DNA of 63,635 nt, counting the filler, from Platydemus manokwari (Eukaryota): the NCBI GenBank assembly GCA_037951405.1. It is 6 parts of 6 records of this genome, joined end to end, with 100 filler letters (N's around TTAATTAATTAA, not from the genome) between each part and the next. Parts side by side here need not be neighbours in the genome. Positions count along the whole stretch, not along the records: positions 1 to 11,294 come from JBBMOY010789981.1; 5 more parts are not named here. One strand, written 5' to 3'. Under the pieces are notes generated by a model. The model worked only from the letters and a program-made list of their open reading frames with translations, had not been told where the DNA came from and searched no databases. Of the stretch, positions 1-46,188 are shown one piece after another (position 1 is the stretch's first letter; every line of letters starts with the position of its first letter). The translations under genes and the position numbers were made by a program.

Positions 1-209
1 CTTTTATTGTTACTATTTATATTCTATTTTTATACAGGTGTGAATAATCATTTTTATAAAGTCTCCAAATCATAAAGAATTATATTTATATATCAGAATC
101 AAAGTTATAGAATGACAAATAATTATTCTCAGAATCGTATATGCGAAATATACAGAGAATCTTAAGTAAAAGAATAAATGTGCACAGAATCGAAATCATA
201 AATATTCGA

Positions 210-520
210 AGCAAAGATATTATTGATGGAATTTGATGATGTCTATGATAATTTATTAGCTATGAAGGTAGACATATGGTTAGATAAATCAACTAATATC
301 CAACTCTTAATAGTGCTGAAGCATAGGTGCTCTGTATAAATTATAGTTGTATGTAAATAAAAATAATTGAAGATGAATTACTTTGATTAAGCTTGCGATA
401 TGATATGATAAGATTATCAATATTCTAATAATTATAAATGGTTTTATATTGAAATGTTGACATAACCTGAAGATGACAAACAATCAGTGTTGTTAATTAT
501 TGGTACTCAAACGTGGTGAA
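210..520 (+). pseudogene. Possible D5-like primase/SF3 helicase fragment (decayed, truncated at Walker A)
   Basis: Manual translation gives MEFDDVYDNLLAMKVDIWLDKST (resembles D5_N 'FDxxxxLLxxxNGxxDLxT'). Further on it gives KWFYIEMLT*PEDDKQSVLLIIGTQTW*, resembling the strand leading into the SF3 P-loop. Several stops are present and the match is weak. Confidence 0.35.
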
Positions 521-541
521 AAAAAGGTTAATTAATCAAAA

Positions 542-1360
542 TCAAATGTCATCAAATAATCTTTCGTCAATAAATTGTTTGATTGCGCGAGAGTCGTGGC
601 CATCTAGAATAGTAAGAGTGACATCTTTGGATTCTAAAGGATGAGTCGTCGAGAATAAGCGATCATAGAGATATATCAAATATCTCATGTCAGACTCCTC
701 GTATTCAAATCCATCACTACAAAAACGATCCTTTATTGAATTATAATAAGTTTTTAGGTATATATAATGATCTGCATAAAGCTTGGCTTGTTTTGCTTGT
801 TCACACAATCCATATACAAAGGCAGCTAACTGTTTATCTTTCGAGAGATCTTCTCATATGCACGAAATTTAAAATTAATAATTTCGTCCCAATCAATTGG
901 GTTGGTCTGGCTCATAAATCGAATTCGGTTCCCCGGTAGTTTACTAAATTCATAAGGTATAAATACAGAGATATTCGATTCAAGGCTTCGCTCGATAATA
1001 TAAAATTATCCGAGGGAAGGTGGTTTATCGTATCCAATTTGGTAGTCATGATAAAATGACTTTTAATTAGCCAGATTAGCAAATATATTCTCATATCCAA
1101 ATGGAAGGTTAAAATAATCAATTGTAATATTTAGGTGGTTCCTTACCCAACCATTTAGCAACCAGTTCGCGTACAATATATAAATCATCCGAACCCCATT
1201 CGTATTGATACAAGCCAATATTATAAGATTTACCAACCGATGGAACTCCATCGATAACAAATTGACACCGAGGTAGATTAAACGGTCTCTGTATATCACC
1301 ATATGAATCATCAATCGATTATCGGAATATCAAATCAATAAAAGACGGAATATTGGACAT
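542..1360 (-). pseudogene. Intronless deoxynucleoside kinase (dNK family) pseudogene, virus-like
   Basis: Minus-strand translation across stops and frameshifts gives the dNK motifs in order: P-loop FVIDGVPSVGKS (1226-1252), YIVRELVAKW (EPVxxW equivalent), IIERSLESNISVF (ERS motif, 985-993), ADHYIYLK and the lid region FEYEESDMRYLIYL, ending at the stop at 542-544. ATG at 1358-1360. Confidence 0.7.
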
Positions 1361-1478
1361 ATTAAATAATTCAAACTAATAACTAGTGCATATATACTAT
1401 TTAAATATCGTGTTTATCCGGATATTCCCACCCTAATTTTACATATATAAGACCGATATACTTTATGAAGTTTATATG

Positions 1479-1603
1479 TTTAAAATGTCAACAGGTCAAT
1501 TACTCGCATTTAAATGAATGAATTCGTCGGCCAAGTTTCCAATCCGAGCTACTATCGAATTCATTAATGTAAACGCGAGTAATTGACCTGTTGACATTTT
1601 AAA
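1479..1603. repeat. 48-bp inverted repeat (foldback) with 29-nt spacer
   Basis: 1479-1526 and the reverse complement of 1556-1603 differ at 3 of 48 positions. Both outer ends contain TTAA. Confidence 0.95.
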
Positions 1604-3249
1604 GATTAATTTAGAAAAAGGTCAAATGTTTTTTGAAAACTTTGAGTCGGTTAATTAAATAATAATTCTCTATCGTGTAATATTAATATATTAATATAAA
1701 TAAAATTTGTTCTTGTCTTCAATGTGGTTACTTTGTAATTTTTTGCCAAAAATTTCTGTTATTTTTCTTATTTCTTTGTGCTTTTTATACTATTTTTGTG
1801 TTTATGTCTTCTTCTGATTGGGTGTTTACTAAACTGGTTATTTATTTTCTTTCTTAACCAAGTAGCCATAAAAATGGGTTAGGTTGTCATGGAAACTAAT
1901 GACTTGTTTTGACTATTTGTATTTATCTATTTATTTTTCATCATTTATTATTAGTTAATTATTTATTTTATTATTTCTTATTATTTATTTCAACAATTTG
2001 ATTGTTTTAACTGCACTTAAGAAGAGTTTATACATTATTGTAATCAATATCATGAAAATAAAATATAATGGAATTATGTTATTGTAATTAATATAATGAA
2101 TATATAAAATATAATGACATTATTTTTTGAGTACAGTGAATATTGAAAAACAATTGAGAGCAATCGATTTAAATTATTGTTGGGTTTACTTTGTTAATGA
2201 TTTATTAAGAGGCTTAATTTAATTTTGCTTTTCGCGCTTTTACTTTTGTGGGACTGGATATTTCCGTTCTATCCTATTGCAACATGATTTAAGTGTACCG
2301 CTGGTTTTGAAAGAGCTTCAATAATGGGTATTGGTAATTGTTAAGACTGAAAACTAAAGGTTATGTAAATTGCTTTAATTATATTAATGTTAATTAATGA
2401 TGAAAAAGGTGATCTTGTTAATGGTTCTGAAATTATAATATTCACTATCAATAAGTGCTCGCTTAATCTATACTCAGTTAAAACGCTCAAAGTTGGTTTA
2501 AAAATTTATTTAGGAAACAAATCTATTAACAATTAATGAAAATATAACAAAAAAAGTTTATTCAATGTTCAGCGTCTCGCGAAAGTGATTTGCTGAGAAA
2601 TCCGTAAGAGGGCGAAAAAGAGATCAAATATATTTGTAGGGTTGTGGGGCCTATGGCAAGATTTTAATTAGACAGTAATTGCATGAAATTTTAATGTAAA
2701 ACGTTCTTATGAGAATTCAGGGAGATTTTGTGACCAACAGGAATATAACAAAATAATATATAATTTATACCCCAATTAATAATCCCGATAAATAATATTA
2801 ACAAGGCATTAAAATTAAAACCATTAAAATAATCTTATATTAAGTTCACTAATTAAAACAACACTGAGCGAATTTATCCATGAAGTAATCAAGCGGAATA
2901 AGTTATCTCACATGGCGAGTAAAATACCCAGTTAGAATAAATTAATATCCATGCATTAAATAAAAATAAATTACCGTGCATTTAATCGCAGAGAATTTCT
3001 CTATACCACGATAAATTCTAGCACATTAAACATATATGCACTGCATTAAATAAAATTCGCGGACAATTTTTGTGAATGACTCACCACAGCCTATATAATT
3101 ATACGCACTGCACAATAGTTACATAAGAAGAACCAGAACGTAACATTTCAAGATCATTCATTGCCGGGACCGGGACTGGGATATGCCCAGTATATTCTAC
3201 TGGAAGAACAAACTAAGATAATACAATTAAAATTACATATTAATATTTC

Positions 3250-3790
3250 TATCGCACATTCCACCTATTTATCGATCTGAGCTCGGAAAACCCTCTTGAG
3301 AAGGACACTTACCTATTATCAAGAAGGGTCTAGTTTGGTCCACTATCTTCTATCCTGAATTGTATATTAATTTCAACATTTAGGAGTATAAAAGTATTAA
3401 CACTTAATTTTTAATACATATTTTGGTGTTAAAAATTAGTTTTGATATTCATTTAACATTTGACATTCACAAGATTCATGAATTCATTATTAAATAGTTC
3501 ATTATCATTAATCACCTTTTAAAGTTATTCTGGTGCATAATTAAATCAAATCAAATGAGACTGATTTTAAAATCAATAACATTGTTGAGACCATAATTGA
3601 GGTAATAATACGGATTAAGTTAATTAAATCGATTTCTACGCTGTTCCACTTATCTTCATATAAGTTGAGAACGTCGAGGCGAAGCAATATCAAAATACAT
3701 AGGTCTATCTGAGGGTCAAGACAGAACCTGATTTAGTCGTAGGTTTCGATCAAATCCAATAATAATTATTAAAGAAATAAAAGCAGTGAC
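3250..3790 (-). mobile_element. Interspersed repeat family A (probable LTR segment), copy 1
   Basis: Reverse-complement homolog of 8990-9560 and 10145-10730. Shares the block GCTTCGCCTCGACGTTYTCAACTTATATGAAGATAAGTGGAAC and a CCCTTC...TAAGTGTC...CAAG block. Confidence 0.75.
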
Positions 3791-4128
3791 CTCAAAACGT
3801 TACATATGGAAGAAATTAATTACGGCAAATGATATTATGAATAATTAAATATGCCTGAAAATTGGTAAAATTATAAAGTGGGCCTTACTCCGGTCAATTG
3901 ATAAAAGTTCGATAAATTTTCAAAACAAAATGCTCTCGCAAAACAAATATCTTCCGAATGACTACAATATGTAAAAATCTTCTACTGCAAGTGAATATAT
4001 CCTTAACTATGGTTAGCAACTATCGTAATGCGGTCTGAAATTGTGTGATCAAATGTTTGTGTTAATCGTTTTTGTGTCATCTTTTTTGGGTGGGTTTGTG
4101 GTCAGATCAACTATGTATTTATAGTGAT

Positions 4129-4840
4129 TCAAACCCTTGACCACATTTGCTTTCTCAAATAATAGGGTATTCCTTTTGTTCTTATTCGAATTTGGGTGAA
4201 GTCTTGTAAAGCACTATTTATCTTTTGCGTGGTGAGATGAATTGATATTGAAGTGAATGCTTCCAGGGTTATATCTTCATTTGGGTATGTGACTGTGGTA
4301 TCCACTTGAGTGTTTTGAATATTTATCATCGTTGGGGAAAAATCCAATTGTGGCAGCATATCTCTGATCTTGAAGCTTCTTTGCTCTTGGGAAAAGAGAA
4401 TGATCACAACTCTTTTCTTCTGAGAAGATGCTTTGAGATTGTTGAGTAAATCTGTAATATTATTGAATTTCCTTATCCCTATCACAAGGGGTGCTTTCTT
4501 TACAGCCGATTTTATTGCTGAATAGAACCTTCGTAGGTAAAACTGTATTATGGATGCAGTTGGCTTCATTGCTAAATCATAAAAGATTAATTCTGAATAA
4601 ATGAAGGGGTGCCTTACTCTTTTACGTAGTGATCGTGAAGTTTCTGCTTTAAAATTATGATTTTTAGAGGTTCTATAAGCGCTTTTATAGTTCTTAGCCA
4701 CTTGATGGTGATTGGTTATTAATTTACTGGTCTTTTTCATATTGGTTGGGATTTTAGGGGTATTATTTCTATTGGACAAATGATTTTTCTCCATTAGTTT
4801 ATTCATTAGGGATTTTTCAGGGAATTTATTTGCATTCATT
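4129..4840 (-). CDS. Intronless basic ORF of unknown function, probably carried by a mobile element
   Basis: Stop-free for 321 codons (4129-5094), but the 5' third runs through degenerate tandem repeats. A plausible start is MNANKFPEK near 4835. No recognisable domain; flanked by repeat family A. Confidence 0.35.
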
Positions 4841-4856
4841 ATTCTACTCCTTGTTT

Positions 4857-5095
4857 TATATTTACAAAAATTAAATTTCCTATACACACCGATAAAAAGA
4901 TTGTATTGATATTTACAAGAATTGATCCTATTAAATATAATTTTATACACCAAATTTGGATATTTACATAAATTGATTTCTCCTAATTTCCTTAAATAAT
5001 TATTACAACTTTTTATATACAAATTGATTTCATATTGCCATTGGTATTTACAGAATTTGATCAAGTAATTAAAAATTTTACAAAAATTATACAAA
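4857..5095. repeat. Degenerate ~40-50 bp tandem repeats with core ATATTTACA(A/G)AATT
   Basis: The core recurs about 6 times and reads as xCKY on the minus strand. Similar cores occur at 7540-7620. Confidence 0.65.
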
Positions 5096-5509
5096 TTGTT
5101 TTCATCCTATAATTGCTATAAGCTGACTTCCCATACACTAGGGTTGTCCTTACAATATTTTCTATATAATTTATAACTTATGTATATCACCATTATGGTG
5201 GTCAAGCTGGAAACTACTGCTCCTATTATCATTATATTTAGGGTGATTTCATTCTGAGGTTTCACATTGCTCAAAAAGTTTTAATGATGGGCTTTGTCGT
5301 TTCCTTTATAACAGAGGGTTCTAATTTTATTTGTTCTCGATGAATTATGTACTTAGCGTTACTTTTTTCATAATACTAAAAGTACATGTTTATAGGATTC
5401 TTGATATTAACATTCTGGATGATGATTCCTTCGTTTGAATTTATTTAAATTGATGTTCTTTGATATGCACTCTTACTTCAAAACATTTAAGGTCTTCCCA
5501 GATGATTTT

Positions 5510-7125
5510 TATTTTATGTAACAACTTTTCGATAAATATTTTACGGGGAAAAATAGTTAATTATTGACTTAGTTCAATACAGAATAGAAAGTTCTGTGAA
5601 GACAAAATCAATTTATTGTTTAGTCATTTAATGTATTATGATACATTTTAAACTAAAATGATTTTGTGAGATAACAAAAGGCATTTTTAAATATTTTGCT
5701 TATATATAGTTTTATTTTCTTGATACTTCTTTTCAAATTTGTATTTTTACTGAGATAACTTGAAGGCTCTTGTTTATGATTTAATTTATTTTTATCATTG
5801 TGGGTATTCGGTTAATAAACTAAAATATTAAAAAAAGTACACTTTATAGAGCGTATATACTTTTATATTTGTACAGAAAATGGATTGATAAAATGATTGT
5901 TATCCTAAAGAAGACAAATGGTTCCAAAATTTGCTTATCTTAAGACACTGGTTGATTATAATCATGAATAATTATAATTATTGAAAATTTAAATCGTTAA
6001 GAATACCTAATGAAATAAATATAAAAAATGAATTCGACAGTTTAAGTTGCGATCCTAATAGCAACCGAAACTAGTGTCAACAATTGCCTTGTTACAAACT
6101 GAAAGGTCCATCATCTGAGAACTGTGAATGACGACAATTCACTGACCTTTTGTTTTAATGCTCTGACATTATGAATTATGACGTATCTTTTATAGTCATT
6201 TGATTTTTCTTTGTGTATTCACAGCGTCTCGTTTGAAAGTCGATGCTTTTTCCACAGATCACTTTTAAGTGTTCAAGTTTTCATATTTTTCATATTGTAA
6301 ATTTGTATGCGTAAAATTCTTGGCTTTATGATTAAACAGACTGAATTTATGACATTTGATTTTGATAACGCTTACGAGTGCATTGACGATACAATACCGT
6401 GTCTTAGATTCTGCCTTGTGACATCCTGTTTGGTTTATTGTTTGATATATTATTACTATTCTGATTATTCCATTAATTGTTGGTGTTTAATTTTGGGGTT
6501 TACTTCCGTTTAATGGACAAATATGTCCTGCCGTGCTATTGATAATTTGAAGACATATGATTGGCTACTGGAACATGTATTTATTGTACATGTATGTAAC
6601 CCTTTGAAGATTTTTCGACGATTAGATAATCATCCTTAATAGATTTGTCGTAGATAAATTGGAATCGAATTGTTTAAATTACTTTCAAATTCTTTTTATG
6701 GGAAAACAATTGAAAATATTAGAATTATTAATAACGAAAAAAATTGTAAAACTTTAACGTCGCAAATAATTTACTCTCGTTCAAAAATATTTACGGAAGA
6801 TGTCATGCGGTTCACATGCTAGATTCAAGTATATTGTGTGATAAATTTAATTTTATGGGTTTTACAATTTTATAAAATGCAAAATTAGTTATATATAATT
6901 TTATATATAATGGATTAGAAAAATATTTATCAGGTAATTATGAAATACATTATCTAGACACGGCTTGTTTATTGAATTTATTTTTGATAAAAATGAAACT
7001 TTAAGTAATATCATTGATAAAATCAATGATTTTATAGGAAATGAAATATTTCAATTTAAAGATGAAAAACCCAATGAAAATATAAAAATAAGCGATTCAA
7101 TGATACCAAAATTATATCACAAATC
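5510..7125 (+). pseudogene. Maverick/Polinton-type (protein-primed) family-B DNA polymerase relic
   Basis: Motif B ELFKLLSNSFYGKTIENIR (6667-6723), then SKIFTEDVM, CDKFNFMGFTIL*NAKLVIYNFIYN, a motif C remnant EIHYLDT (6951-6962) and FQFKDEKPNENIKISDSMIPKLY. These are collinear with the Maverick pPolB 'KLMNNSVFGKTMENVR...KPIYVGF.IL..SK..MY.F.Y...LYTDTDS...KDE.....FVGLRPKMY'. Weaker exonuclease-region remnants at 5510-6040 (FTGK, SHLMYYDTF, SFYFLDTS, DYNHE). Motif A was not found, and ~6040-6590 looks unrelated. Confidence 0.8.
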
Positions 7126-8989
7126 AGATGGGAAATAATAATCATTGTAAGCGGCTATTTTTATAACGCACGCATTGAAAATTAACTGAAAAGTCACGAC
7201 ACTAAATTATATTTTAATTACAATTATTCAAACAAATAAATATTTTATAAAAATATGATTTAAAATTTTTTAAAATTTCGATTCTTTATAAATCCTCCTA
7301 TGACTCTCTTTAAAATATTTGATATTGAATTCTTAACTATCTATGTATTTATAACGATCAATATTATTATTACTATTTCTAAAACTATTGGTTAAAAATG
7401 ATTTTGCTAGTTGAACATTTGTTGGGTTTTTTATAAATGTTTATTGGCGTTCCTATTAGTTATTTGTTTTGTTACTTTTTTTATTGTTCGAATTTTGAGA
7501 GACTTTTATTGGTTACCCGATAAAAATATTTGTTATTAATATTTACAAAATTTCCCTACCAATATTTCTATTGGTTAATGAATAAGAATATTTATTAGTA
7601 ATATTTACAAAAATTGTTATCCTTTTTTCCACAATAATTTATAATACATCTTTATTCAGGTTTATTATTTTACTTCTCATTTTAAAACATTTTTATATCA
7701 ATAATTGAACCTCTATAATAACAAATATTATAACTCATCGATTAAACAATTAATGGACAAATTGAAATTAATTAAATCGATTAGTTATCGACACTAATAT
7801 TGTTTGTGTTTAAAACTATGTTAGGTTAAGCATATGGAGAATTGTTTGATTCATTTTTGCAGAAATTTAGACCAAAATAAAAAATGAGAATATTTTTTGA
7901 GGTTTATTTTCCTTCTCCTCTTATTGGTATTTTTATCTATTTCTACTCCATTTTTGGATTATTATTTCGCATATTCTTGGTAATTCGTTGGATTTTCTTT
8001 TCTTATTTGTCTTCTTTTCATATTTGAATTTTTTTCAGGTTTTCTAATATATCTTTTGATTTTATTCTTAGTGTCCGTAAATCCAAATATCACCAGTCAT
8101 ACTTTCTTCATAAATCTATTCCAATTAATAGTGCCAATGAAGCTAGCTTATTTTTTTTCCTATTTATTGCTTGTAAATCTTTTTCTACATATATTGATTT
8201 CATCTCATCTGCTGATGGTGGTGGTAGATAATATTTTTATAGACATTTATATGATTTTTCCTTTATTGGTTGACATATAGTTTGTGGTTGGTTCATTTGG
8301 AATGGTATTCATAGGTTGCAAACTACTACTTTCCTTGTCTTCCTGCTGTTTTACCAAGATTAGATACTTAGCTATTGGCGGGCATATAAAATGCATTATT
8401 TTCTCTGACTATCTAAATACGACTCTTAATGGTTTTGCTGAAATTGTCGATGAGAATATTATCTTGATTAATGCGTCTATGCTATATATAATACCAGAAA
8501 AGATTTAAAACATGAAAGAATTATAATCTTCCATATAGACATTATACCATTCCTTTAGTGGGTTTTTTGAGATTATTTGGTGATATTAATGATATTAAGT
8601 GATATCAATATTGATACTTCAATTATCTATCTATGATGCCTCTTAATGCTTTATGCACCATTATAAATTTTTCTATTTGGATTAGAAATATCATGAGTTT
8701 TCTTGCATTTTATGTGTACTTTTAATTACTAAAATTTTGTTATTAAAATATGGAACGTTATAAAACACAAAATTAACTTACAAAAATATCAAATATTAAA
8801 ATTGAACATTATGAAATAGAATATTATGGAACAAATTTGATTTGAAATGAACATAATTAGTTATTGAAATTTCTAAATATAAAAGTTTCGAAAAACAATA
8901 TAAAATATATGTTTAAAAAGCTCCATAAAAAATAATTAGTTGTTGTTTCGGAGTAACTGAGTTTATTCTCTTTATTAATTCTTATTTGA

Positions 8990-9560
8990 CTTAATCGAGT
9001 TCTACGACTTAATCAGTTCTCAAAGTCCGTTTCGATCCTCAGGTAGCATTTTGACTTATGAATATTGATGTTGCTTCGCCTCGACGTTTTCAACTTATAT
9101 GAAGATAAGTGGAACGGTTCAGAAAAAGATTTTAATTCTAGTATTACCTCTATTATCGTCTCAACCTTTTTTATATCAGTCTCTTAATCAAATTGATTAT
9201 CAAATTATTCCCAATGAGGTGATGAGTGATACTGGGATTTATATATGATGAACTTGTGATACCTTATAGTCAAATTGCTGATCAAGAACCAACTCGGTTT
9301 AATATAAAACGTTTGTTGTAATTAGTAAATACATCAATTATTGCGTATGCAATGAAATAAAAATGGCTACAAATTACTACTTTTCTACGTCAATGATGTT
9401 AACTAAATAATTATACACTTAAACGTTGGACAAAACTTCTCAATATATAACTTCAGGATAGCAAGTAGTGTACCAACAAATCCCTTCGTGACTATTGGAT
9501 AAGTGTCCTTTACAAGAGTGTTTTCCGAGCTCGGATCGATAGATAGGAAGAATATACGAT
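8990..9560 (+). mobile_element. Interspersed repeat family A, copy 2
   Basis: Homologous to 3250-3790 (reverse complement) and 10145-10730. Contains the conserved 43-bp block at ~9073-9115 and the palindrome TCCGAGCTCGGA at 9524-9535. Confidence 0.75.
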
Positions 9561-10144
9561 GTAAATAATGTAATATTGATTTACACGAATGTATTCTTTT
9601 GTTAATTTTTGTCTTCCACGGAAATTAGATTATTTCTATACTCTTAATATATTTCTATAAGGCATATACTTGATGGCAGACTTCGGCGCAAACATCGATC
9701 TTCGGTTATTCACATGTAGTTTCTAGTAGTTTCTTATTAAGGATAAAGGTATATGATGTTTTACTGCCTTATATATGGTTGTTGGACTATGACGGAAATA
9801 TTGTGTTTGAATAAAAAATGCGGGCTTAATTTATGCTTCATTGTAATAATTTTTTAGAAATTCAACGGAAATATTTTTCCGAAGCCTTTTGCTATGCGGG
9901 TTTATAAGGGCTTCATTGTTGATGTTATTTTAAATTTCGGGTAAAAAACGGGTAAGAATATGGGTTTAATAATTCAAAATTATATTCACTACACTAAATT
10001 AAGTCCTGATTAAACTTATTTTCTATTTAAATTTGTTTAATTTTAATAATATTAATTTTAGAATTATCATAAAATATTATCAAACTATTTTACGATAACA
10101 AGATTTTATTAAAAAACCAAAATCCTTTAAATTTATTATTTGTA

Positions 10145-10730
10145 ACTTTTTGGGGTCACTACTTTTATTTCTTTAATAATTATTATATCACTTGATCGAT
10201 ATCTAAGTCTTTATCAGTGCTCTGAGTCCGTTTCGACCCTCAGGTTATATTACCTATGTATTTTGATATTGCCTCGCCTCGACGTTCTCAACTTATATGA
10301 AGATAAGTGAAACGGCGTTGAAATCGATTTGATTTTTTTTCTTTTATCCCTATTATTGTTCTTTTACAAGTCTCTATCAGTCTCGATTATTAATTTTATT
10401 AACAAAACTTCCCAAAATAGGTGATGAAAGACACTGAAACTTATGTATAATGAAATTACGATATCCTATGCCAACTGGTAGATTGAAAACCGACTCGATT
10501 TTTATCCTACAAATGTTTATTTTGGATAACAACATACACCAAGTTATAAATTACTACTTTATACAGCAAATTATGTGTTTACAACAATTAAATAAAAGAA
10601 ATAAGTTGATTTTAAACACTACTTCTATACACTCAAATGATGAGATAACTATTCAATGTACAATTCAGGATAGAAGATCGTGGACCAAAAATACCCTTCG
10701 TAATATTGGGTAAGTGTCTGTTTACAAGTG
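10145..10730 (+). mobile_element. Interspersed repeat family A, copy 3 (3'-truncated)
   Basis: Shares GTCCGTTTCGAyCCTCAGG, the 43-bp core (~10271-10313) and CAGGATAG..CCCTTCGT..TAAGTGTC with the other two copies. Confidence 0.75.
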
Positions 10731-11294
10731 TTGGGTTGTGGTAGATGTTTATTTATTTGTTGTTTAAAACAACTCAACAGCGTGAGTTCCCGTTTTTTAT
10801 TTATATTATAACAAAACATACGGAGAAGACAATAAACTTTATTATGATTAAAAAATAGTGTACAGTCAGATAAATTTTTGTTCACACAATTTAACTCGAA
10901 CAAATATTTTATATAAAACAAGTTAGTACGGTTATCTCACCGAGATCGTGAGAACCTTTTATATTTTTCCTTAAAAGTTTATTATATATTTTATTCAATA
11001 TAATTCAACTCCAAAGGGGGATCCTTCAGAGAGTAGTTATAAGTTCAATTTTATTAAGAAGTTAAAAATTATCGATCCGTTACTTTTTCTTAACGTCAGA
11101 TTCTCGCTGTATCAAAATTCTTTATGTCGAAATTTTTAAGAGTGAATTGTGATGGAAATCCCTCAGCTTATATAGATGCTGAAATTCGGTACTTTGTACC
11201 TAGGAATTTCCATCACGCTTATAAATTTTAAACCATTTTTTCACTTTTGATCTTTAATATTTATAATTATAAAAGTTCAAAACCTTAAATATTC

Positions 11295-24310: not shown

Positions 24311-24622
24311 TTAATCATTAATATTTATATCAAAATCTTCATACATCTTCTTGACTGTACATTGTTTGATATCGGCTAATAAACCTAATATCTTCGTAGT
24401 CAGATCTTTTATATCATTATATTGGTGTAATTGATCGATTATCTCATCTAATTCCGATAAATCAAATCCTTCATTTTTGAACAGTTCAATTTTCTCATCC
24501 AGTTCCTGTTCTTTTTCTAATAAACTGACATAAAGATCATCATTATTTTCATTATCTTGATCCGTTTCGTTTTTTATCTTTTTTATTAATGGGGACTTGA
24601 ACGGAGCATTAGCACGCTTCAT
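24311..24622 (-). CDS. SWI5: DNA repair protein SWI5 (Swi5/Sae3 family), 103 aa
   Basis: Intact ORF with the family signature IDQLHQYNDIKDLTTKILGLLADIKQCTVKKMYEDF (cf. HIxxLHxYNDIKDxGQxLxGxLAxxRxVTxKxLYxEF) and an N-terminal FKSP motif. Confidence 0.93.
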   Translation of the reverse strand: MKRANAPFKSPLIKKIKNETDQDNENNDDLYVSLLEKEQELDEKIELFKNEGFDLSELDEIIDQLHQYNDIKDLTTKILGLLADIKQCTVKKMYEDFDININD

Positions 24623-25410
24623 TTCTAAAATTTTAATTAATTAATTCAACTAACAATTAAAATAAATCATCAAATCAAACAATCCTCTCCAATCACGATA
24701 GCTAATTAAGAAAGAAAATCAAAAATAAAACAAAAGCAAATCTTTTTATTCAAAAAATAACATCTAATTTTGATAGGCACAATTATCGACGGCAATTTTC
24801 ACATAAAAATGCAAAACTTTTCTCTTTGTCGATTTTAACACAATGAAGATGATACCAACGAATTTCACAACCAGAATTGATACATTCAACCATTTCCCCA
24901 TATGCATTATCGTTGCAAAAACAAACTTTCTTTTCTCTTAAGAATTTTTCCGTTAATTAAAACAAATAATTTTAAAAAATTAAAATTTCAAATTTGGCTT
25001 TCAAAAACTACAACAGACAAAGATATTCAACAAATTTGAAAGGGTTACACCACTAAAATAACATGTTTTCTGTTAAAAAAAATTTTGATCAATCAATAGT
25101 GAAAACAAATTACAAAATTTTCTGTATGCATTGATTATTTTGCATTCTATTTTACAATTTCATAATAAGATTTTCGAAAATAAAACAATTTAGCCCATCT
25201 ACACCCACCGTTGCTTTAACAGAACTAAGAATAATCAATGGTAAATAGTTTTCCTTTGGGATTTCAAACATCGAGTTGAAACAATAGCCCAAATATGAAT
25301 TAAAATGCACAAGAATTTATTTTCAAGAATTCTCATTTTTATTTAAATTAATTGAAATATATATAAATCATTAACGGTAACATTAAATCAGATCTATTAA
25401 CGCGTATTAA

Positions 25411-25965
25411 TAAGATTGAAACGAAAGTCTTTTCGGATAGAAAATAATATTTATTTAACAAATAAGGACGCAGAAATTTACTGGACTCAGTTGGACAAAC
25501 TGGTAGATGCGATTCGAGTAAAGAGGTGCCGGTTGTGTGGAAACAGTTATGAAAAATTTCATTTCCTTCACGATATCGTTCGACCGCATACGTTTAACTC
25601 AAAATAAGCTTGTGCAATCAGTTTTACGGTAACAGCGCATCCACCATACACCCCAGACCTTGTCCCTTCTATTATCTGTTTTCTCCTATGAAAAACTCAG
25701 TTCATGGGAAAACTTATCACTCCGCTGAAGAGGTTAACGATGATTTGAAAAGTAGTTCGCAGCAAAACCTGAGAAATTCTATCAAAACAGCATAAAACAA
25801 CTTCCAGAACGCAGGTAAAAGTGTGTAGACTTTAATGATGATTATTTTCAACATTTCAGATTCACAGACGAATGGGGTTTTGTTTATATTTCTCAATTTA
25901 CATATTTTCTTCATTGGTTAAATAAATATTATTTTTAATCGGACAAGACTTTCGCTCCAATCCAA
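25411..25965 (+). mobile_element. Internally deleted mariner (DD34D) element with both TIRs
   Basis: Imperfect ~50-bp TIRs (25411-25460 versus the reverse complement of ~25915-25965), with TA after the right end. Transposase C-terminal remnant EIYWTQLDKL..FLHDIVRPHT..HPPYTPDL..YYLFSPMKN..KPEKFYQNSIKQLPER..DYF. Confidence 0.92.
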
Positions 25966-26589
25966 TATTATAATGATGATATTTTTGCAGCAATTTGTTG
26001 AATTACACACTGTTAAACTGACGAATCAATCGGTGTGAGTTTCTCGTGACAGAATTGATTCAAATAAATGACGTTGACAACTATAGTGCCAAATGGTTTT
26101 AGATTTTATACAACATATTTGGCAAAATTGCCAGCAAAATATATAAAATTATTCACTAAAATATCTCAAACAGTTGAAAACGAAATATCAATCTAATTAT
26201 TTTTCAACAAATCCAAAAAATTCAAAGAAAAACCAATCAATCCAAAATCAAAAAATTAATTGTCCAACTATTGTGGCTGAGAAATAGTCAGTTCCGTTTT
26301 TTTTTCCAAAAACTTTGAACCGGAAAATTTTTCAAATAAATTACCCTATCTTTGATTGTTATCCAGAAAAATACATCGCGACTTGAAGCTTTCACCAGTG
26401 TGACAATTAAAAATGTTCAATTATTATGATAGACAATTTAGATAAGTCGAAATTATCTGGAATAACTTTAATGATTTTTTTTGTACAGTAAAAACAGGAT
26501 TATTGCAATGTTTTAAAAATCAAAATGAAATGACGAAAAAAAATTATTATAAAATGGCAAAAAACAATTTTTTAATAACAAAATGGAGT

Positions 26590-27140
26590 GAATTTTCCAA
26601 TGATATAGTAGCTAGAAATTTATTCATTCCTTATAATTGTTCTTGAACGTTCTCATCAATCTTATATTCAAGATTTGATCATGAAATGAGAATTTAAAAA
26701 CAAACTGTAATTGTAGTTTCCATAGCAACAGCTAACACACATCGATAACCCAAACAAGACATGATTATTTAAACAATTTTTTGTGTTTACAAATGAGCCA
26801 CTGATAATGAGCCACAATTTTCCGAAAATTCAAAACAAATCATTAATTTTATGCAATTAATTTTTTAATAAAGAAAAACTGAATAACTTTTGCAATGATA
26901 TAGTAGCTAGAAATTTATTCATTCCTCATGGACTTTATATTCAAGATTTTGATCATGAAATGAGAATTTAAAACAAACTGAAATTATAGTTTCCATAGCA
27001 GCAGCTAACACACATTGTTTGGACAACCCAGATATGATTATTTAAATAAATTTATTTGGCTATACAAATTCGCTGATAATGAGCATCAATTTTCGGGAAA
27101 ATCAAAACAGATCATTTAATTTTATGGAAATAATTTTGTA
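26590..27140. repeat. Tandem duplication of a ~295-bp non-coding unit (2 copies)
   Basis: CAATGATATAGTAGCTAGAAATTTATTCATTCC occurs at 26598 and 26893, with continued similarity to ~27130. Confidence 0.9.
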
Positions 27141-32482: not shown

Positions 32483-35400
32483 TTAGTTACTGGGATTCTC
32501 ATTGCGTTTGAGCATATTTCGAGGATGCTCCTTTAGTGCATTGTACATGAATTGTACGTAAGTGTACACACATTTCTCATCGGGTGAGTCCAGTACAAGC
32601 ATGTCTTCCGGGTCCAGCAGAGGTTCTATGCCACCATACTTCCTTAACAAACTTATGTTTATCCAGCAAATATTAACAAAGCGTAACTTCGCAGTTTCAA
32701 AGGCTAATTTTAAATTCCTGAGTGGATTTTTCGATGAAAGAGAATTGTAATCGAAGGAATTTGGATAAAAGTGATGAATCAGTGCACAGAAAGCCAGACC
32801 ATCAGCCCAAGATTTCGAATAATTTGTTATTTGGATATTCTGAATGATAACAATTATTTCAAATTTTCGTATTTTTTGCGTTAATATGCATTAAAAAGTG
32901 CTCTAAATGGAAGCAATGCTGAACTCATAGCAGCTAATAGCAGTCTACTCTCTACTTGGTACTCGATGGTATTTTTCTGAAGCCATAAGAGTAATTTGTC
33001 TCTCAATGAGCCTTTTGACTGGTAACCAATAATATGTGCACTTCCTTTTCGAGTAAGAGAAGACCCCTGTCTGCAAATTGACATAGTTGTGGATAACTCG
33101 AGTACAGAATTACAATGTTTATATATAAATATAAATATAAATATATATTTGTAGCAGCATTAATGAGTTGTGCTTGATTCAAGAACTTTAGTAGATTGTG
33201 CAAAAATATTTATAAAAATAATAATAAGAATAATAATAATAATCATATTATCCAATAACAGCATATACAAGGTGATGTGCTCTATTTACAAATTATGTTT
33301 TTGACGAGACCTCATATTCTTTAGTGTTTTCTTGACAGAATTCAATAATATGTGCCTTTATTGCCTGCACTGATGAACGGGCAGTCTGTGCCCTCCTCTT
33401 CATTTGGGGAATCACCTTCATAACACTCCTGAAGACATAGTTAGACAACCACAAAGATTGAAGTGAATAGAGTAAAATATAACAGAAAAAACAAATTAAA
33501 CTTGCTGCAGTTTACATAGAGCCTGAATCTTGAAAATCATCCCGAATTATTATTTTTATTAATATTCATTATTATAACTAATTTTGTTGCTATTATTTAT
33601 TACAACAAACTATATAACAGGAACAATAAAATTAAAATTTTCTAGTTCTTAACATAATCTATTATACATTTTTTACTATTGGAATAGAATTTTCTCAACT
33701 TGCTTCTTATGTTGGGTACAGACCCCACTCCAAAAACGATAATGATAATAATAATTTAATTTTTTTTTCATTATGTTCAAGATTTTTCCAATATTTTTCA
33801 TGGTTTATACTAAATACAACTAAGAAATGATCTATAAATTACAGCATAGATTGATCCATAAATTTTTTGGGTGTAACTTTAATCCCAATCATTAGTAAGG
33901 CTTTCAATGGGATACATGGCTTTTACGGGCAAAAGCAAGAAGGAATCATCGTTATTTAATAATACAAAGCAATACAATTTGAAATAATCAATCAATTTAT
34001 TAATTAAATAACGACTTGTTTATTTATTCAATATTGCATTTTATTGTATTCTATTTCGATCTCATATTTCATTATTTCATTGAAATATTCTTTATTTAAT
34101 TATATTTTAAAGTGTTATAATTACTGGAGTAACCACATCTATTGGATCTAGGTTTTAATAATATAAAGTAGTATTTTATACTTGAAATCTGATCACCGAT
34201 AAACTCTTATTGTGACAAGTCATTGATTAATATAGAGCTTCTTTAGATTTTTAAATCTATCGTAAAATAATAAGCCAATCAAAGTATGGCATAGTTCAAC
34301 ATTATTGATTTTCATTTTACAATGTAGTGAATATTTAAATTCGCATTCATTTAATTTTATCATTGATTAATAATCAATAATAGTGCCTTTCGGGTGAACT
34401 TATAAAAATTACAATAATGAAATATATTTTAATGTTTATATTTCAACTATAATATGGATAAATAAACTTACGTCGCACTAATTTTACGAGTTCGCGCTCC
34501 CGACGCTGTTGTAGTATTTTCACCAGAATTGATTTCTGATAAATTGACAAATTAAGTAGATAATATATTTTCGAAATGTTTTCATGTCATTTTAACCATA
34601 TATAAAAGTAAATAAAATCAAATGTCGCACTTATCCGTAGAAATTGGGAGTTTAGTAACAGATGTGAAAATCGTGCAAAACCAATAATCAATCAGGAATA
34701 AAGATTAAAATAACGAACTTGAAAATAAACAGTGAAGTGTTGGATAAGGGCACTCGCTCTAATTCTTTGACGAATAAAAATGTAAAATCAAATTCGACGC
34801 ATGAAAATTACAAGCAAAAAAAGGATTTCAATCACTGAGAAATTCCACGAACGTGATTCTTATCAGAATCAAATATCGTAATCAACTATAAAGGTGATAT
34901 TTGAGAAAAATAGTCTTTGACCAAATACTAATCAAGTATAATCTCGAGTTCTTGTCTAAAACGCATTCTCTCGATACTCATATCTTCTTGCTTGGAATAG
35001 GTGGGATACATTTAGAGCAATTGCTGAGATTTTATTTGTTAATTCTTCAAGGGACAAGCCTTACGCTTAATATCCACGTATTGTTTCCATTAACTTTAAA
35101 CAAGACTTCAAAATATCCTTTGGAATAATTTTTATTTGATGGGTCGAATATGCTATGGGTCGAAATATTTACATTAAAACCCACACTTCTGAGTCGCACA
35201 TGACTCCTGGACATAAACTAATAAAAGAATGTCAAAACATAAATATAGATGACTGGATATAACTGGATAACAAATAATTTAATCGCGTACCTCGTCTAGG
35301 ATTTGATTTTGTCAGATTCATTTTTAGCGACGAATTTATTAGATCATTTATTTCTTGGTCAGTCAAAGCTTTGACTTTCTGGGATTTTTTGGAATCGCCT

Positions 35401-42736: not shown

Positions 42737-45700
42737 ATCACCGATAAAATGTCAAATGTTCACAAAATAACGATCCTAGAAAAAATCAATCAAATGTTTG
42801 TCTGTTCAATTTGTTGTGATATGAAAGCTGGTAACAATTGTAAACCATTTGCAACATCGAATCCGTCTCTTTTTCTCGAACATCAACGATGTTGTCATTC
42901 ATCCATCAATGAATTTGAATGTATTTATTGTTGTTGTCATTTGCCAAGCGTCAATTTGATGCAACATATTCAAAACCATTTCACCGAACCTTCAACGGAT
43001 AATCGATTCACTTGTCCTCATTGTTCGGATCGAGTGAAAATCAACATTGCCAGTTGTTTGAACCATTTGGAAATCAATCATCCCCAACTGGTGCCGGATT
43101 GTCCATATTGTCGACACATGTTTTCTAATCGAACAGACCTGCTTCATCATTTGCAGAAACATTTCCTATACGTATTCCATTGTTCATTCGATAATTGTTT
43201 CGTAAAGAGTCACAATAAGCATGGTGTTCTTGAACACTTGAAACGAGTCCACAACGGATCTCGATGTCTCAAGGTTGAATGTGTGGTAATAATTAATTTT
43301 AATTATCATTTATTTTCTTTTTTTACTAGTTTTCTTATTTATATTTTATATTATAATTATATGATGATAATATATAAATATTTTTCAATTGTCTAAAAAT
43401 GCTCCATAATAAAGTATGACGCAACGACTTTGAAATTAATTGTATAATCATCTATAATAATAATCATCACCATCATCATCATCAACTGTTATTTCATGTA
43501 TCAAATCGCTGTCAACGATAAACTAAATATTCTGGCCATCTTCTATCTTAAAATCTATGTTTTATTGCTCATCTCACACAATGGATTGCCACATATTGCG
43601 CACCCTTGAAAAAATGGAGTTGTTCAGTGATGCGATCACACATCTAGTGGGTGCGGTTGTTTGCTATCAGACCTGACGAGATGTGATAAAGAGCAATTTA
43701 TTAATATCGCGTATATTATATTCTACAGTGTGTTTAATTGTGTGGACTTTTCTATTAGATTTGATTTGATTCTTTATTTGTTGAGAATGATGTTGCTGCT
43801 ACTAATGCAAGATATCTCCTTACAACTTTTCTCGAAATGTTTACTGATGTATAACGAACAGGTATTATATGACCACTTTGACTTGAGATTAAAGAGGGTT
43901 TCTGTCATTGATGCTGCGACTTGGGCTTAGGTGTTCTCTATCAATCTTTTTTTTATCGATCTGTCTGGGTGTCAACGAAACATTCAGTATTTGACCACAG
44001 TCGATTGTGCGCGCATTTATTGCTTTAGAACAACGATTTCTGTTGTGCTCAATCATCCGTGACTGCGACGGTTATTCATTTCTGCACCCAGTGACCAGAT
44101 TCACGACACAACCTACACTCAGTCACTTGAGTTTCGGTAATCTTCTTTGTGCGGTTTGGTGGTATACAAATGATGAGAATGCAGATTTAAACAATGGCTC
44201 TGAGAGCAACTATTTCGTTTTGTGTTGCTAGCAGGCATCGCTCTAATGACCATCTTGATGCCGAAAATCACAGACCGTTATCAATTATTATGACAGAAGC
44301 GGTCTTATTTTTCAATGGTTTTCTTTTTTCTTATCTTTCTGTTTCAGTATCAATGCTTATATCAACGAAATTAATTGGTACCCCGTTATTGGTCACCAAT
44401 TGTCTATGACTGAAGCATTTTCTGAAATCTCAAAAAGAATTGATTGATTTTTTAATTTTTACTGCACATTTTTATTTGTCCACTTATTTCAATTTAATAA
44501 AAGGTTGTTCATCATTTTTAAAATTTTCTTTCACATTTTGTTCACATGAATACTTATTCGCTACTCATTCAGTTAACGTGTGCGGAACGTATGTCATCAA
44601 AGGGCCAGTGTAACTGTAACCTCAACAATAGTGAACTGCAATCTCCCCAATCACCTTTAAAAATTAATAGTCCTCCTACAGATGATTGTCAGATGATTAA
44701 TCTACCATATTCCACCCGAGTGCTCAGTAAATTGTCATCGGGTTTCGATGAAAGATTGAGAGAAGATCTAATTAGCAAAATGGCTCAATATTCTAAATTT
44801 AAAGTTCGTCTGGAAATAGTGGATGGTCAGAAGCAATTTGTGTGTTCTACATGCCAATATCGATCAGTACATTCTTTAGCAGATGTTCGAAAGCATATTT
44901 TGGGCTGTCATTGCAGCGTCAGTACAAGTTATACGCGCTTATGTTTACGTGCCAGTCGCTTGGATACGAACACGTTCTCTCTGTTTTCCGATCGCAAATT
45001 GATTTCATTTGCCAATGAAAAATTGAAGAGAGCTGAATCTGGAACAGGATGGGATGCAAATGGAGACAGTAGTGCAATGCAATTATTGGATGATAGCGAG
45101 CCGGAACAGGAAAGTCCAGTTGATACAGTTACTAGACCTATTAAGCGCGGTTTACTATCTAGTGGCACGATGGGATCAATTAAACGAGCTAAAATGACGC
45201 AACGCCAGAGCCATTCAGCTAAAATGAGACCAGATTCACCGGTACCGGAGGTAAACATGTAGCATTCATATAATAAATGTCCGCGTGTTGCCGTGTTTGT
45301 GTGTACACTGTGATTTTGATTGGATAATAAATTCATTGATTATTTCAGGTCGGTCAGCCACTGGCACGGAATGAAAAAATAGACCGCGTCATTCATCTCA
45401 ATTATTCTTGGCACGTACTTGAGCGATTGGTCGCAGGTCAGTGCCCAGAGCGTTATTTGCCGATATTGCGACAGAAAATGGATGTATACGCCTTACATAG
45501 TATTCTTCTCACCAGGCGCAATGGCAAGCGCTACTTTCTGTGTTCTCATTGTCCAAATTGTTCGCCTCACGGTATGAACGATATACGCAAACATATCCTC
45601 GGGGTTCATGCTCGCCTTCCCGAGCGTTTCAAGGCGGCAGCTATGTACTGCTCTCGAATGAACCGTGACAATTACGGTCTCTTATCCGATGATGAATTAC

Positions 45701-46188
45701 TCAAGAAAAACCAAGACATGGTTCGATGGCGAAAGGTGCCGTCAAATAATAGTGATGATAATTTAATGGACCCGTTACCACCTTTGCAACCCGCAACATG
45801 CTATGAAGATAGTTCTCCGATCTCGCAGTCTCAGAACAAGTCTCATAATATCTTCTTGTCTGGTGACAATGGGGAAACGAGTCCACTATCGACGGTTCCA
45901 GATGCATTTTCTGACCAATTATCTTTTAATCATCAAAACAATATCGAGCTGCAATTTCCCTACAATATTTTCGGCAACATCAGCAATACAACAACGAAAA
46001 ATCCGAGCAATGCCTCCAATGAGTCGTCACCGAAGATCGATGACAATTCTTCAGTGACATCATCTGTCAACATTATCAATCAGCATAGCAACGGTCGCAG
46101 TCGGCGCTCTCTCGTACTCAAGTCGAGGAGCAACAATACCAGTAACAACAGCAACAACCACAACTATGTTAGCAACGCCACAATCTAG
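42737..46188 (+). CDS. Multi-C2H2 zinc-finger protein (exons 42737-43285, 44573-45250, 45349-46188; possibly 5'-incomplete)
   Basis: Three phase-0 GT-AG exons. Five C2H2 fingers in the first exon (e.g. CPYCRHMFSNRTDLLHHLQKH), two atypical fingers (CSTC...DVRKHILGCH; CSHC...DIRKHILGVH) and an Asn/Ser-rich tail. An acceptor ttttag lies 12 nt before the ATG at 42749. Confidence 0.88.

Follow-up and report, generated by a model that had tools for sequence, protein, structure and literature searches.

Two probably separate insertions in Platydemus manokwari: a Polinton-type polymerase fragment and a hairpin-flanked deoxynucleoside kinase-like pseudogene

Results and Discussion

The first contig (positions 1-11,294) of the Platydemus manokwari DNA analysed here (the window: the whole 63,635-nt stretch, fillers included) carries two gene fossils that probably arrived as separate insertions in a graveyard of repeats: a dead scrap of a Polinton-type PolB, and a dead, single-copy gene predicted to encode a viral deoxynucleoside kinase (dNK), with a hairpin upstream of it. 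The two lie 5.3 kb apart in a repeat-rich stretch (Table 1). An initial annotation had taken them, together with a D5-like helicase and a foldback, for the remains of a single endogenised element. This reading appears unlikely: sequencing contigs cover the PolB deeply, whereas at 80% identity or more the kinase and foldback are matched by their own contig only.

Table 1. Features of the first contig and the evidence for each
Feature	Position	Strand	Evidence
Dispersed repeat family member (initially annotated as D5-like fragment)	219..517	.	X1 contig pile-up; densest at 219-406
dNK-like pseudogene, intronless, about 272 codons	542..1360	-	ordered motifs, coding test, stop count, codon-position GC, single depth
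Single-copy foldback, 131 nt	1476..1606	.	complementarity, shuffles, depth
Copy of ~600-nt dispersed repeat	3201..3817	.	self-BLAST, X1 contigs
325-codon open frame in moderately repeated DNA	4129..5106	-	ORF, coding test, X1 depth
Internal PolB scrap, Polinton/adintovirus-type, protein-primed	6658..7120	+	tblastn, tree, Pfam of relative
Inverted copies of the ~600-nt repeat at 3201..3817	8833-9618, 10029-10731	.	self-BLAST

The polymerase scrap

The PolB was compared with P0004, an intact 777-aa Polinton-type protein-primed polymerase with DNA_pol_B_2 (PF03175) and Endonuclease_7 domains. A tblastn search with this protein joined three pieces in three frames across 6658-7120 (Expect(3)=4e-47), which correspond to residues 514-675 of P0004 at 63-73% identity. 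Both of the motifs noted previously were found, KLLSNSFYGKTIENIR in the frame from 6658 and YLDT in the frame from 6807. The identity of the PolB is therefore upheld, but a whole gene is not: nothing aligned to P0004 5' of 6658, and 121 PolB queries detected no other piece in the window, N- or C-terminus included, so that what remains is an internal fragment of ~460 nt. Its ~160 codons are broken by two frameshifts and one stop, and the scrap cannot now make the full protein.

Assignment to the Polinton/adintovirus (pfam03175) type was correct, as P0004 passes PF03175 and the tree agrees. In this quick tree, built from 48 of the 121 PolB proteins and one 50-residue window piece and containing long branches, the piece grouped with P0004 (support 95) within a set that includes P0006, P0005 and the long-branch P0018. 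The nearest relatives of the scrap form a small set (44-54% to P0004), with the other listed matches at 30-39%. Many PolB relatives sit on long animal-type contigs. None with gene context was found among viral contigs, and one 1.7-kb metagenome contig bears a relative (35% identity) without neighbour genes.

The kinase frame and its foldback

On the minus strand between 1360 and 542, dNK motifs occur in the order P-loop (DGVPSVGKS, 1261), E-x-x-x-x-W (1180), ERS (1005, in another frame), YIYLKT (769), YL (685) and LDG (616). The frame contains three in-frame stops, compared with ~20 expected in ~272 codons, and it shifts twice, once at about 1110-1130 and again at about 855-870. A coding test over positions 1-11294 ranked this segment first, at 35.1 bits versus a shuffle maximum of 14.0. 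The six ordered motifs, hand-picked after the sequence was seen, scored 58.3 bits, and none of 60 window-size shuffles exceeded 35.7. When profile blocks were chosen objectively, the kinase scored 39.0, below both the shuffle maximum of 42.9 and a non-dNK-like site at 26113; a second dNK near 26 kb, suggested by this test, was rejected on inspection. A spliced host gene was likewise rejected, the sole good donor-like site, near 1146, being out of phase and stops persisting after it.

No search of Pfam, PHROGs or PDB with the kinase, nor a homolog search, in which none of 148 candidates passed E 0.001, gave a match above threshold. Phmmer against 1.84 billion representative proteins returned nothing, tblastn against phages gave two chance matches only, and none of 92 pattern matches in prokaryote genomes was confirmed. 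These searches lose power in that the middle piece, which bears ERS, was either missing or read in the wrong frame, and the Pfam test, in which the frame was split in three pieces, stayed below the PF01712 cut-off. Two-frame mixture profiles yielded no useful alignment, and a single-sequence fold model was unusable (pLDDT 32). Among viral contigs the pattern IIERSLESNI had one exact match, which lies within an intact dNK of contig L144 (Pfam, E 1.3e-36); the P-loop pattern matched only an unrelated contig. A comparison with PF01712, the family of dCK/dGK/TK2 and viral dNK, gives a similarly mixed picture. The P-loop, E-x-x-x-x-W, ERS, Y-L-x-T and terminal L-D-G are present in fitting order and spacing, but the frame is broken, falls below all thresholds and has about 25-30 extra residues after ERS. 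Enzymes of the dNK family have an arginine-rich lid, and the translation shows no clear lid arginines. The earlier identification as a dNK with P-loop and ERS thus holds for the motifs, but no database threshold was reached. Judged from the ordered motifs and the match within a dNK of a viral contig, the frame is probably the fossil of a real dNK-like gene; a non-host origin is likely. It cannot now make the full kinase.

The foldback proved real. Its 51-nt arms (1476-1526 and 1556-1606) are 92% complementary about a 29-nt centre (z=-12.7; 0 of 200 shuffles as good). It lies between the two genes, with 115 nt separating it from the ATG of the kinase downstream, and it marks the right edge of the single-depth block. 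That single depth also weakens a reading of the foldback as a MITE. A search of Rfam gave two chance matches only. The minus strand of the centre contains AGTAG, a 5-mer that we take, weakly, to resemble Polinton ends.

Coverage in a sequencing run

Contigs of sequencing run X1, possibly the window's own source, were compared with the window at an identity of at least 80%. The kinase and foldback were covered only by their own identical contig. A single depth of 13.3 was seen in 19 of 30 bins, with exactly this value throughout 518-1581, and depths of 8-18 apply to the six contigs listed as identical to the window. Over the PolB scrap lie contigs whose depth is hundreds of times greater: the bin at 6787-7163 has a mean depth of 2915, with one contig of about 4,100, contig depth not being the same as copy number. 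Over 73 nt, 10 listed sites distinguish the scrap from these deep relatives (an identity of roughly 86%); had a kinase of the same family been inserted with it, the 80% setting should have revealed it. None of the X1 contigs listed bridges the kinase to the PolB. We take the scrap to be a remnant of a Polinton/adintovirus family that is abundant in this host.

Neighbouring DNA

The region called D5-like gave no match to a relevant Pfam family (three frames), PHROGs (four pieces) or PDB (two frames), and its first part, 219 to ~410, is dispersed repeat. On 70-1720 there are 114 other X1 contigs, which pile up at the D5-like segment and at 1607-1704; 96% of them continue into unlike DNA. As for the proposed LTR-type insertions at 1.6-5.4 kb, repeats are indeed present there, but no reverse transcriptase (RT), integrase or gag profile matched, and the ~600-nt repeat has no partner within that interval that would make paired LTRs. 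Neither the D5 helicase nor the LTR label is supported.

No integrase, capsid, ATPase or LTR gene was detected between the kinase and the PolB. Frame pieces from 1-11294 contained no rve-type integrase, though an old fragment could escape such a search, and 48 further frame pieces matched no relevant Pfam family. Whole six-frame translations of 1-11000, pieces too long for sensitivity, also gave nothing in Pfam. Capsid, packaging ATPase and adenain protease found no match in Pfam or to L144 proteins; the sensitivity of Pfam is low here, since it also missed the capsid-like proteins of L144. Neither NS1 helicase nor single jelly-roll capsid was matched in Pfam near the genes. No inverted pair brackets the kinase and PolB among the 25 longest of 136, nor by self-BLAST. 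The 325-codon frame has no Pfam or PHROGs identity, and an Atlas search of it gave no usable match.

Origin of the two fossils

On the favoured reading of two separate insertions, the 1.1-kb block at 518-1606, made up of a hairpin, an AT-rich spacer and a kinase read inward from the hairpin, may stem from the end of a linear DNA virus or viral segment, with a single capture followed by neutral decay. While the virus lived, its kinase would have supplied viral DNA synthesis by phosphorylating deoxynucleosides. Decay is alike in both fossils (5 lesions in 819 nt of kinase, 3 in ~460 nt of PolB); they could thus be of similar age, which counts against two insertions. This likeness, the short distance between the genes and the AGTAG would suit a single element, that is, a rare Polinton variant or bidna-class virus with PolB and kinase, later split by repeats, whose terminal repeats would have met head to head to give the foldback. 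There is also a precedent, as bidna-class viruses combine Alpha PolB, SF3 helicase and segments with TK-like genes (bioRxiv 10.1101/2024.03.25.586562). Against such an element stand the contrast in coverage, the PolB being an isolated internal scrap, the missing bridging contig among those listed, and the failure of Pfam, PHROGs and L144 proteins to detect remains of helicase, capsid, ATPase or integrase. The foldback arms, moreover, are at single depth and hence are not terminal repeats of the abundant PolB family. We therefore consider a single element rather improbable, although some rare member of the PolB family may have carried the kinase.

Two further readings concern the kinase alone. 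A fast-evolving dNK/TK2-like gene of the host, retrocopied or duplicated, with the foldback as an insertion-made inversion or an old miniature transposon, would account for an intronless, single-depth frame without an attached viral gene. However, a copy of a conserved animal dCK/TK2 with five lesions should match Pfam dNK or the library of 1.84 billion proteins, and neither matched; the P-loop also speaks against a host source, as does the best single-sequence score among 83 kinases, that of a herpesvirus-like TK, albeit one pre-selected by this P-loop pattern. A host copy thus seems quite improbable. The frame could also derive from another P-loop kinase family, its dNK likeness being partly chance. 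The lack of significant database matches, the non-significant objective-block test and the poor fold model fit this view, as does hhalign in that single pieces were reached by 2-4 of 60 shuffles. In the same alignments, however, the top alignment of all three pieces was to the dNK motif predicted for each, in correct order, a frameshift-aware profile scored 29.9 (equalled by 1 of 300 shuffles), and the sole exact motif match among viral contigs falls in a dNK; we regard another kinase family as very improbable. Returning to separate insertions, we suggest a viral origin for the hairpin. A bolder proposal, which we put forward tentatively and consider doubtful, is that an undescribed DNA virus of invertebrates, possibly segmented and bidna-like or Polinton-derived, left 518-1606 as its hairpin-ended terminus; its kinase would be too divergent to have a significant relative among the representative proteins searched; in its boldest form, the same virus gave rise to the PolB scrap.

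Comparison with known systems

The pPolB type (pfam03175) of the scrap is shared with Polintons/Mavericks and Alpha adintoviruses (PMC8502044), and PMC8532177 describes Polintons as known and piRNA-controlled in planarians. Unlike these elements, the window PolB has no integrase, capsid, ATPase, protease or terminal repeats found nearby. The bidna-class parvoviruses (bioRxiv 10.1101/2024.03.25.586562) carry Alpha PolB and TK-like (Tkoid) genes on separate segments with repeat-bounded ends; NS1, capsid and Cahain genes were not found here. One Tkoid listed there has a G-x-P-x-x-G-K P-loop similar to that of the window kinase, but a DR motif in place of ERS, the two being set side by side by motif only. 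L144, a 17-kb IMG/VR contig, represents a mid-size, Polinton-like virus with a Pfam dNK and penton-like and packaging-ATPase-like genes. Its dNK shares IIERSLESNI with the window kinase and does not align beyond 13 residues; its replication protein is an SF1 helicase, pPolB was not detected in it, and none of 14 L144 proteins tested matched the window.

The notion that dNKs typify larger DNA viruses is too strong, given the kinases of L144 and those that Buck et al. describe from a MELD virus (Meld29240) and bidna-class segments (bioRxiv 10.1101/2024.03.25.586562). No paper in the literature searched reports a dNK in an animal Polinton, and the supplements of PMC11071296 may hold closer PolB or kinase relatives. 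Polinton debris is ordinary in animal genomes, and with salvage kinases precedented in mid-size DNA viruses, the cluster reveals no new system. Its remaining interest is a modest lead, an orphan, hairpin-flanked, putatively viral dNK-like fossil, and the kinase with its hairpin could be used as bait for a DNA virus of invertebrates that has so far escaped sampling. A second modest lead comes from the very deep PolB relatives, which suggest that one Polinton family, on a sparsely sampled PolB branch, is abundant and probably young.

Fossil genes in the first contig

The cluster that the initial annotation read as one endogenised Polinton-like virus is ordinary Polinton debris together with an orphan fossil resembling a deoxynucleoside kinase (dNK). 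That observation is confirmed in part and its interpretation supported in part: the DNA polymerase (PolB) and the foldback stand, the D5-like helicase and the LTR-type insertions have no support, and the single element is unlikely.

Positions of features in the window
Feature	Position	Strand	Remarks
dNK-like pseudogene	ATG at 1360 to stop at 542	-	three pieces, two frameshifts, three in-frame stops
Foldback arms	1476-1526, 1556-1606		
Dispersed repeat, ~600-700 nt	3201-3817, 8833-9618, 10029-10731		three copies
Open frame, 325 codons	4129-5106	-	window's longest; moderately repeated DNA
PolB fragment	6658-7120	+	
Swi5 host exon	24311-24640	-	
Calponin-homology (CH) domain host exon	32483-32890	-	
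Zinc-finger host gene	42737-46188	+	

The kinase frame has few stops, about 20 being expected in 270 random codons. GC at the first codon position is raised in all three pieces (0.41-0.47 vs 0.28-0.34), and in a family-free coding test over 1-11294 the segment 1312-548 ranked top, with 35.1 bits; the highest of 40 shuffles reached 14.0. A gene was therefore once present here. If X1, the public sequencing run whose contigs were compared with the window, is from this animal, errors of assembly do not account for the stops and frameshifts, because an identical X1 contig has the same sequence.

That this gene was a dNK is very probable, though less sure than its former presence. The ordered motifs support that part of the initial annotation; against it, nothing relevant was found in Pfam, PHROGs, PDB, a homolog search or 1.84 billion representatives. 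Frameshift-aware alignment to a profile made from 79 viral dNKs collected by motif scored 29.9, a value that one in 300 shuffles of this region reached and that two further minus-strand sites of the window exceeded. With hhalign, every piece aligned to its expected dNK motif in the correct order; shuffles equalled the pieces in 4/60, 2/60 and 4/60 cases. Six ordered, hand-picked family motifs scored 58.3, where 60 shuffles averaged 29.0 and peaked at 35.7; objectively chosen blocks scored only 39.0, against a shuffle maximum of 42.9. The ten-residue ERS pattern has one exact match among viral contigs, inside an intact dNK. The single match of the P-loop pattern was unrelated.

The foldback is borne out, folding at -46 kcal/mol (z -12.7). 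When X1 contigs were aligned to 70-1720 at 80% likeness, 115 matched: one is identical and spans the entire stretch, and 114 are diverged. Depth is exactly 13.3 across 518-1581 (19 of 30 bins) while the diverged contigs stack at 219-406 and 1607-1704, which delimits a single-depth block starting just beyond the kinase stop and ending at the foldback's outer arm. Its order, hairpin, 115-nt spacer and kinase reading inward, would fit the terminus of a linear virus or segment. A palindromic 5' hairpin is known in an endogenous parvovirus-like element (PMC3198968).

Among the papers listed by the literature searches, none deals with a dNK in an animal Polinton. In L144, a viral contig of 16,966 nt from IMG/VR, a dNK adjoins a penton-like gene that has viral clusters, Preplasmiviricota among them, as its Atlas neighbours; a packaging-ATPase-like gene is also present. 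These leads suggest that L144 is Polinton-like; its DNA is not closely related to the window. L144 is a compact virus, with genes for an SF1-helicase replication protein, long fibre, dNK, penton-like, probable major-capsid, ATPase, lipase-like and methylase products. According to section 13 of Buck et al. (bioRxiv 10.1101/2024.03.25.586562), TK-like genes are frequent on bidna-class segments, and the paper's supplement enters such kinases for Meld29240 and Parvo5362s2.

The polymerase fragment

The PolB motifs lie where the initial annotation placed them. A homolog search with the 6541-6840 frame found one relative among 38 candidates, P0003, whose cluster mate P0004, an intact Polinton-type polymerase of 777 aa, passes DNA_pol_B_2 and Endonuclease_7. 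By tblastn, 6658-6807, 6807-6962 and 6968-7120 align to P0004 residues 514-675 at 63%, 73% and 63% identity (Expect(3)=4e-47). Since 121 PolB queries gave no match in the window outside 6600-7200, the fragment lacks about 510 residues at the N-terminal end and 100 at the C-terminal end. Among 4053 candidates, 1474 are relatives of P0004 with E 1e-20 or better; among the 120 relatives listed, two have 44-54% identity to it and the rest 30-39%. A quick tree joins one window piece to P0004 (support 95), within a five-row set with PolB proteins P0006 and P0005 and one long-branch row. The scheme of PMC8502044 places pfam03175 PolB in an Alpha class common to adintoviruses and bidnaviruses. Planarian piRNAs are described as actively targeting Polintons (PMC8532177).

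X1 depth in bin 6787-7163 averages 2915 and one contig comes close to 4,100; the six listed contigs that are identical to the window have depths of 8-18. By the tool's own warning such depth is not copy number, and the deep PolB coverage probably reflects an abundant family or abundant DNA. Many loose contig ends at 7159-7218 mark a junction directly after the fragment. Related contigs also lie very deep across 6787-7540 and 10934-11294 (bin means 2915, 8221 and 16854 vs ~13), pointing to abundant repeat families; the first contig ends at 11294.

One element or two insertions

The kinase and the PolB fragment probably arrived as two separate insertions. Had they entered together, the deep PolB family should cover the kinase too, given the 80% cut-off and a divergence of about one listed difference per seven sites between the fragment and the deep contigs in the densest stretch. 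Deep PolB-family contigs in X1 do not cover the kinase at that cut-off. A single element carrying both, as initially proposed, is unlikely: the two genes are similarly decayed, and a rare kinase-carrying variant of the family is possible, but coverage differs between them and the foldback, whose arms lack deep coverage, is situated between them at single depth.

Repeats and surrounding DNA

The proposed D5-like helicase is rejected: it has no relevant profile or structure match, and a dispersed repeat, with copies that pass into unlike DNA at ~221-226, occupies the same stretch. Positions 208-288 are weakly coding-like (9.6 bits), inside the shuffle range. The LTR-type insertions proposed at ~1.6-5.4 kb found no support; 1.6-6.6 kb is a repeat patchwork of differing depths, and a profile search of 48 frame pieces gave one unrelated weak DUF match. 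The two downstream copies of the ~600-700-nt repeat are direct, 1.2 kb apart and ~68% alike overall (80-83% in core parts); the repeat has no Rfam match and could be the terminal repeat of a small retroelement. For the 325-codon frame, Pfam was not significant and PHROGs and Atlas gave no match.

The window is AT-rich (GC ~28%), scaffolded animal DNA, and X1 contains 89% of the words of 400-7200 and may be its source. Each of five 100-nt scaffold gaps (11295, 20416, 31937, 42256 and 51841) contains an identical palindromic filler of 12 nt flanked by N runs; this is an artefact of assembly and gives rise to false repeats. Inverted arms of 55 nt at 25414-25962 (84% complementary, spaced 439 nt) are possibly a miniature transposon, and degenerate direct repeats that recur every ~270-295 nt occupy 26580-27122.
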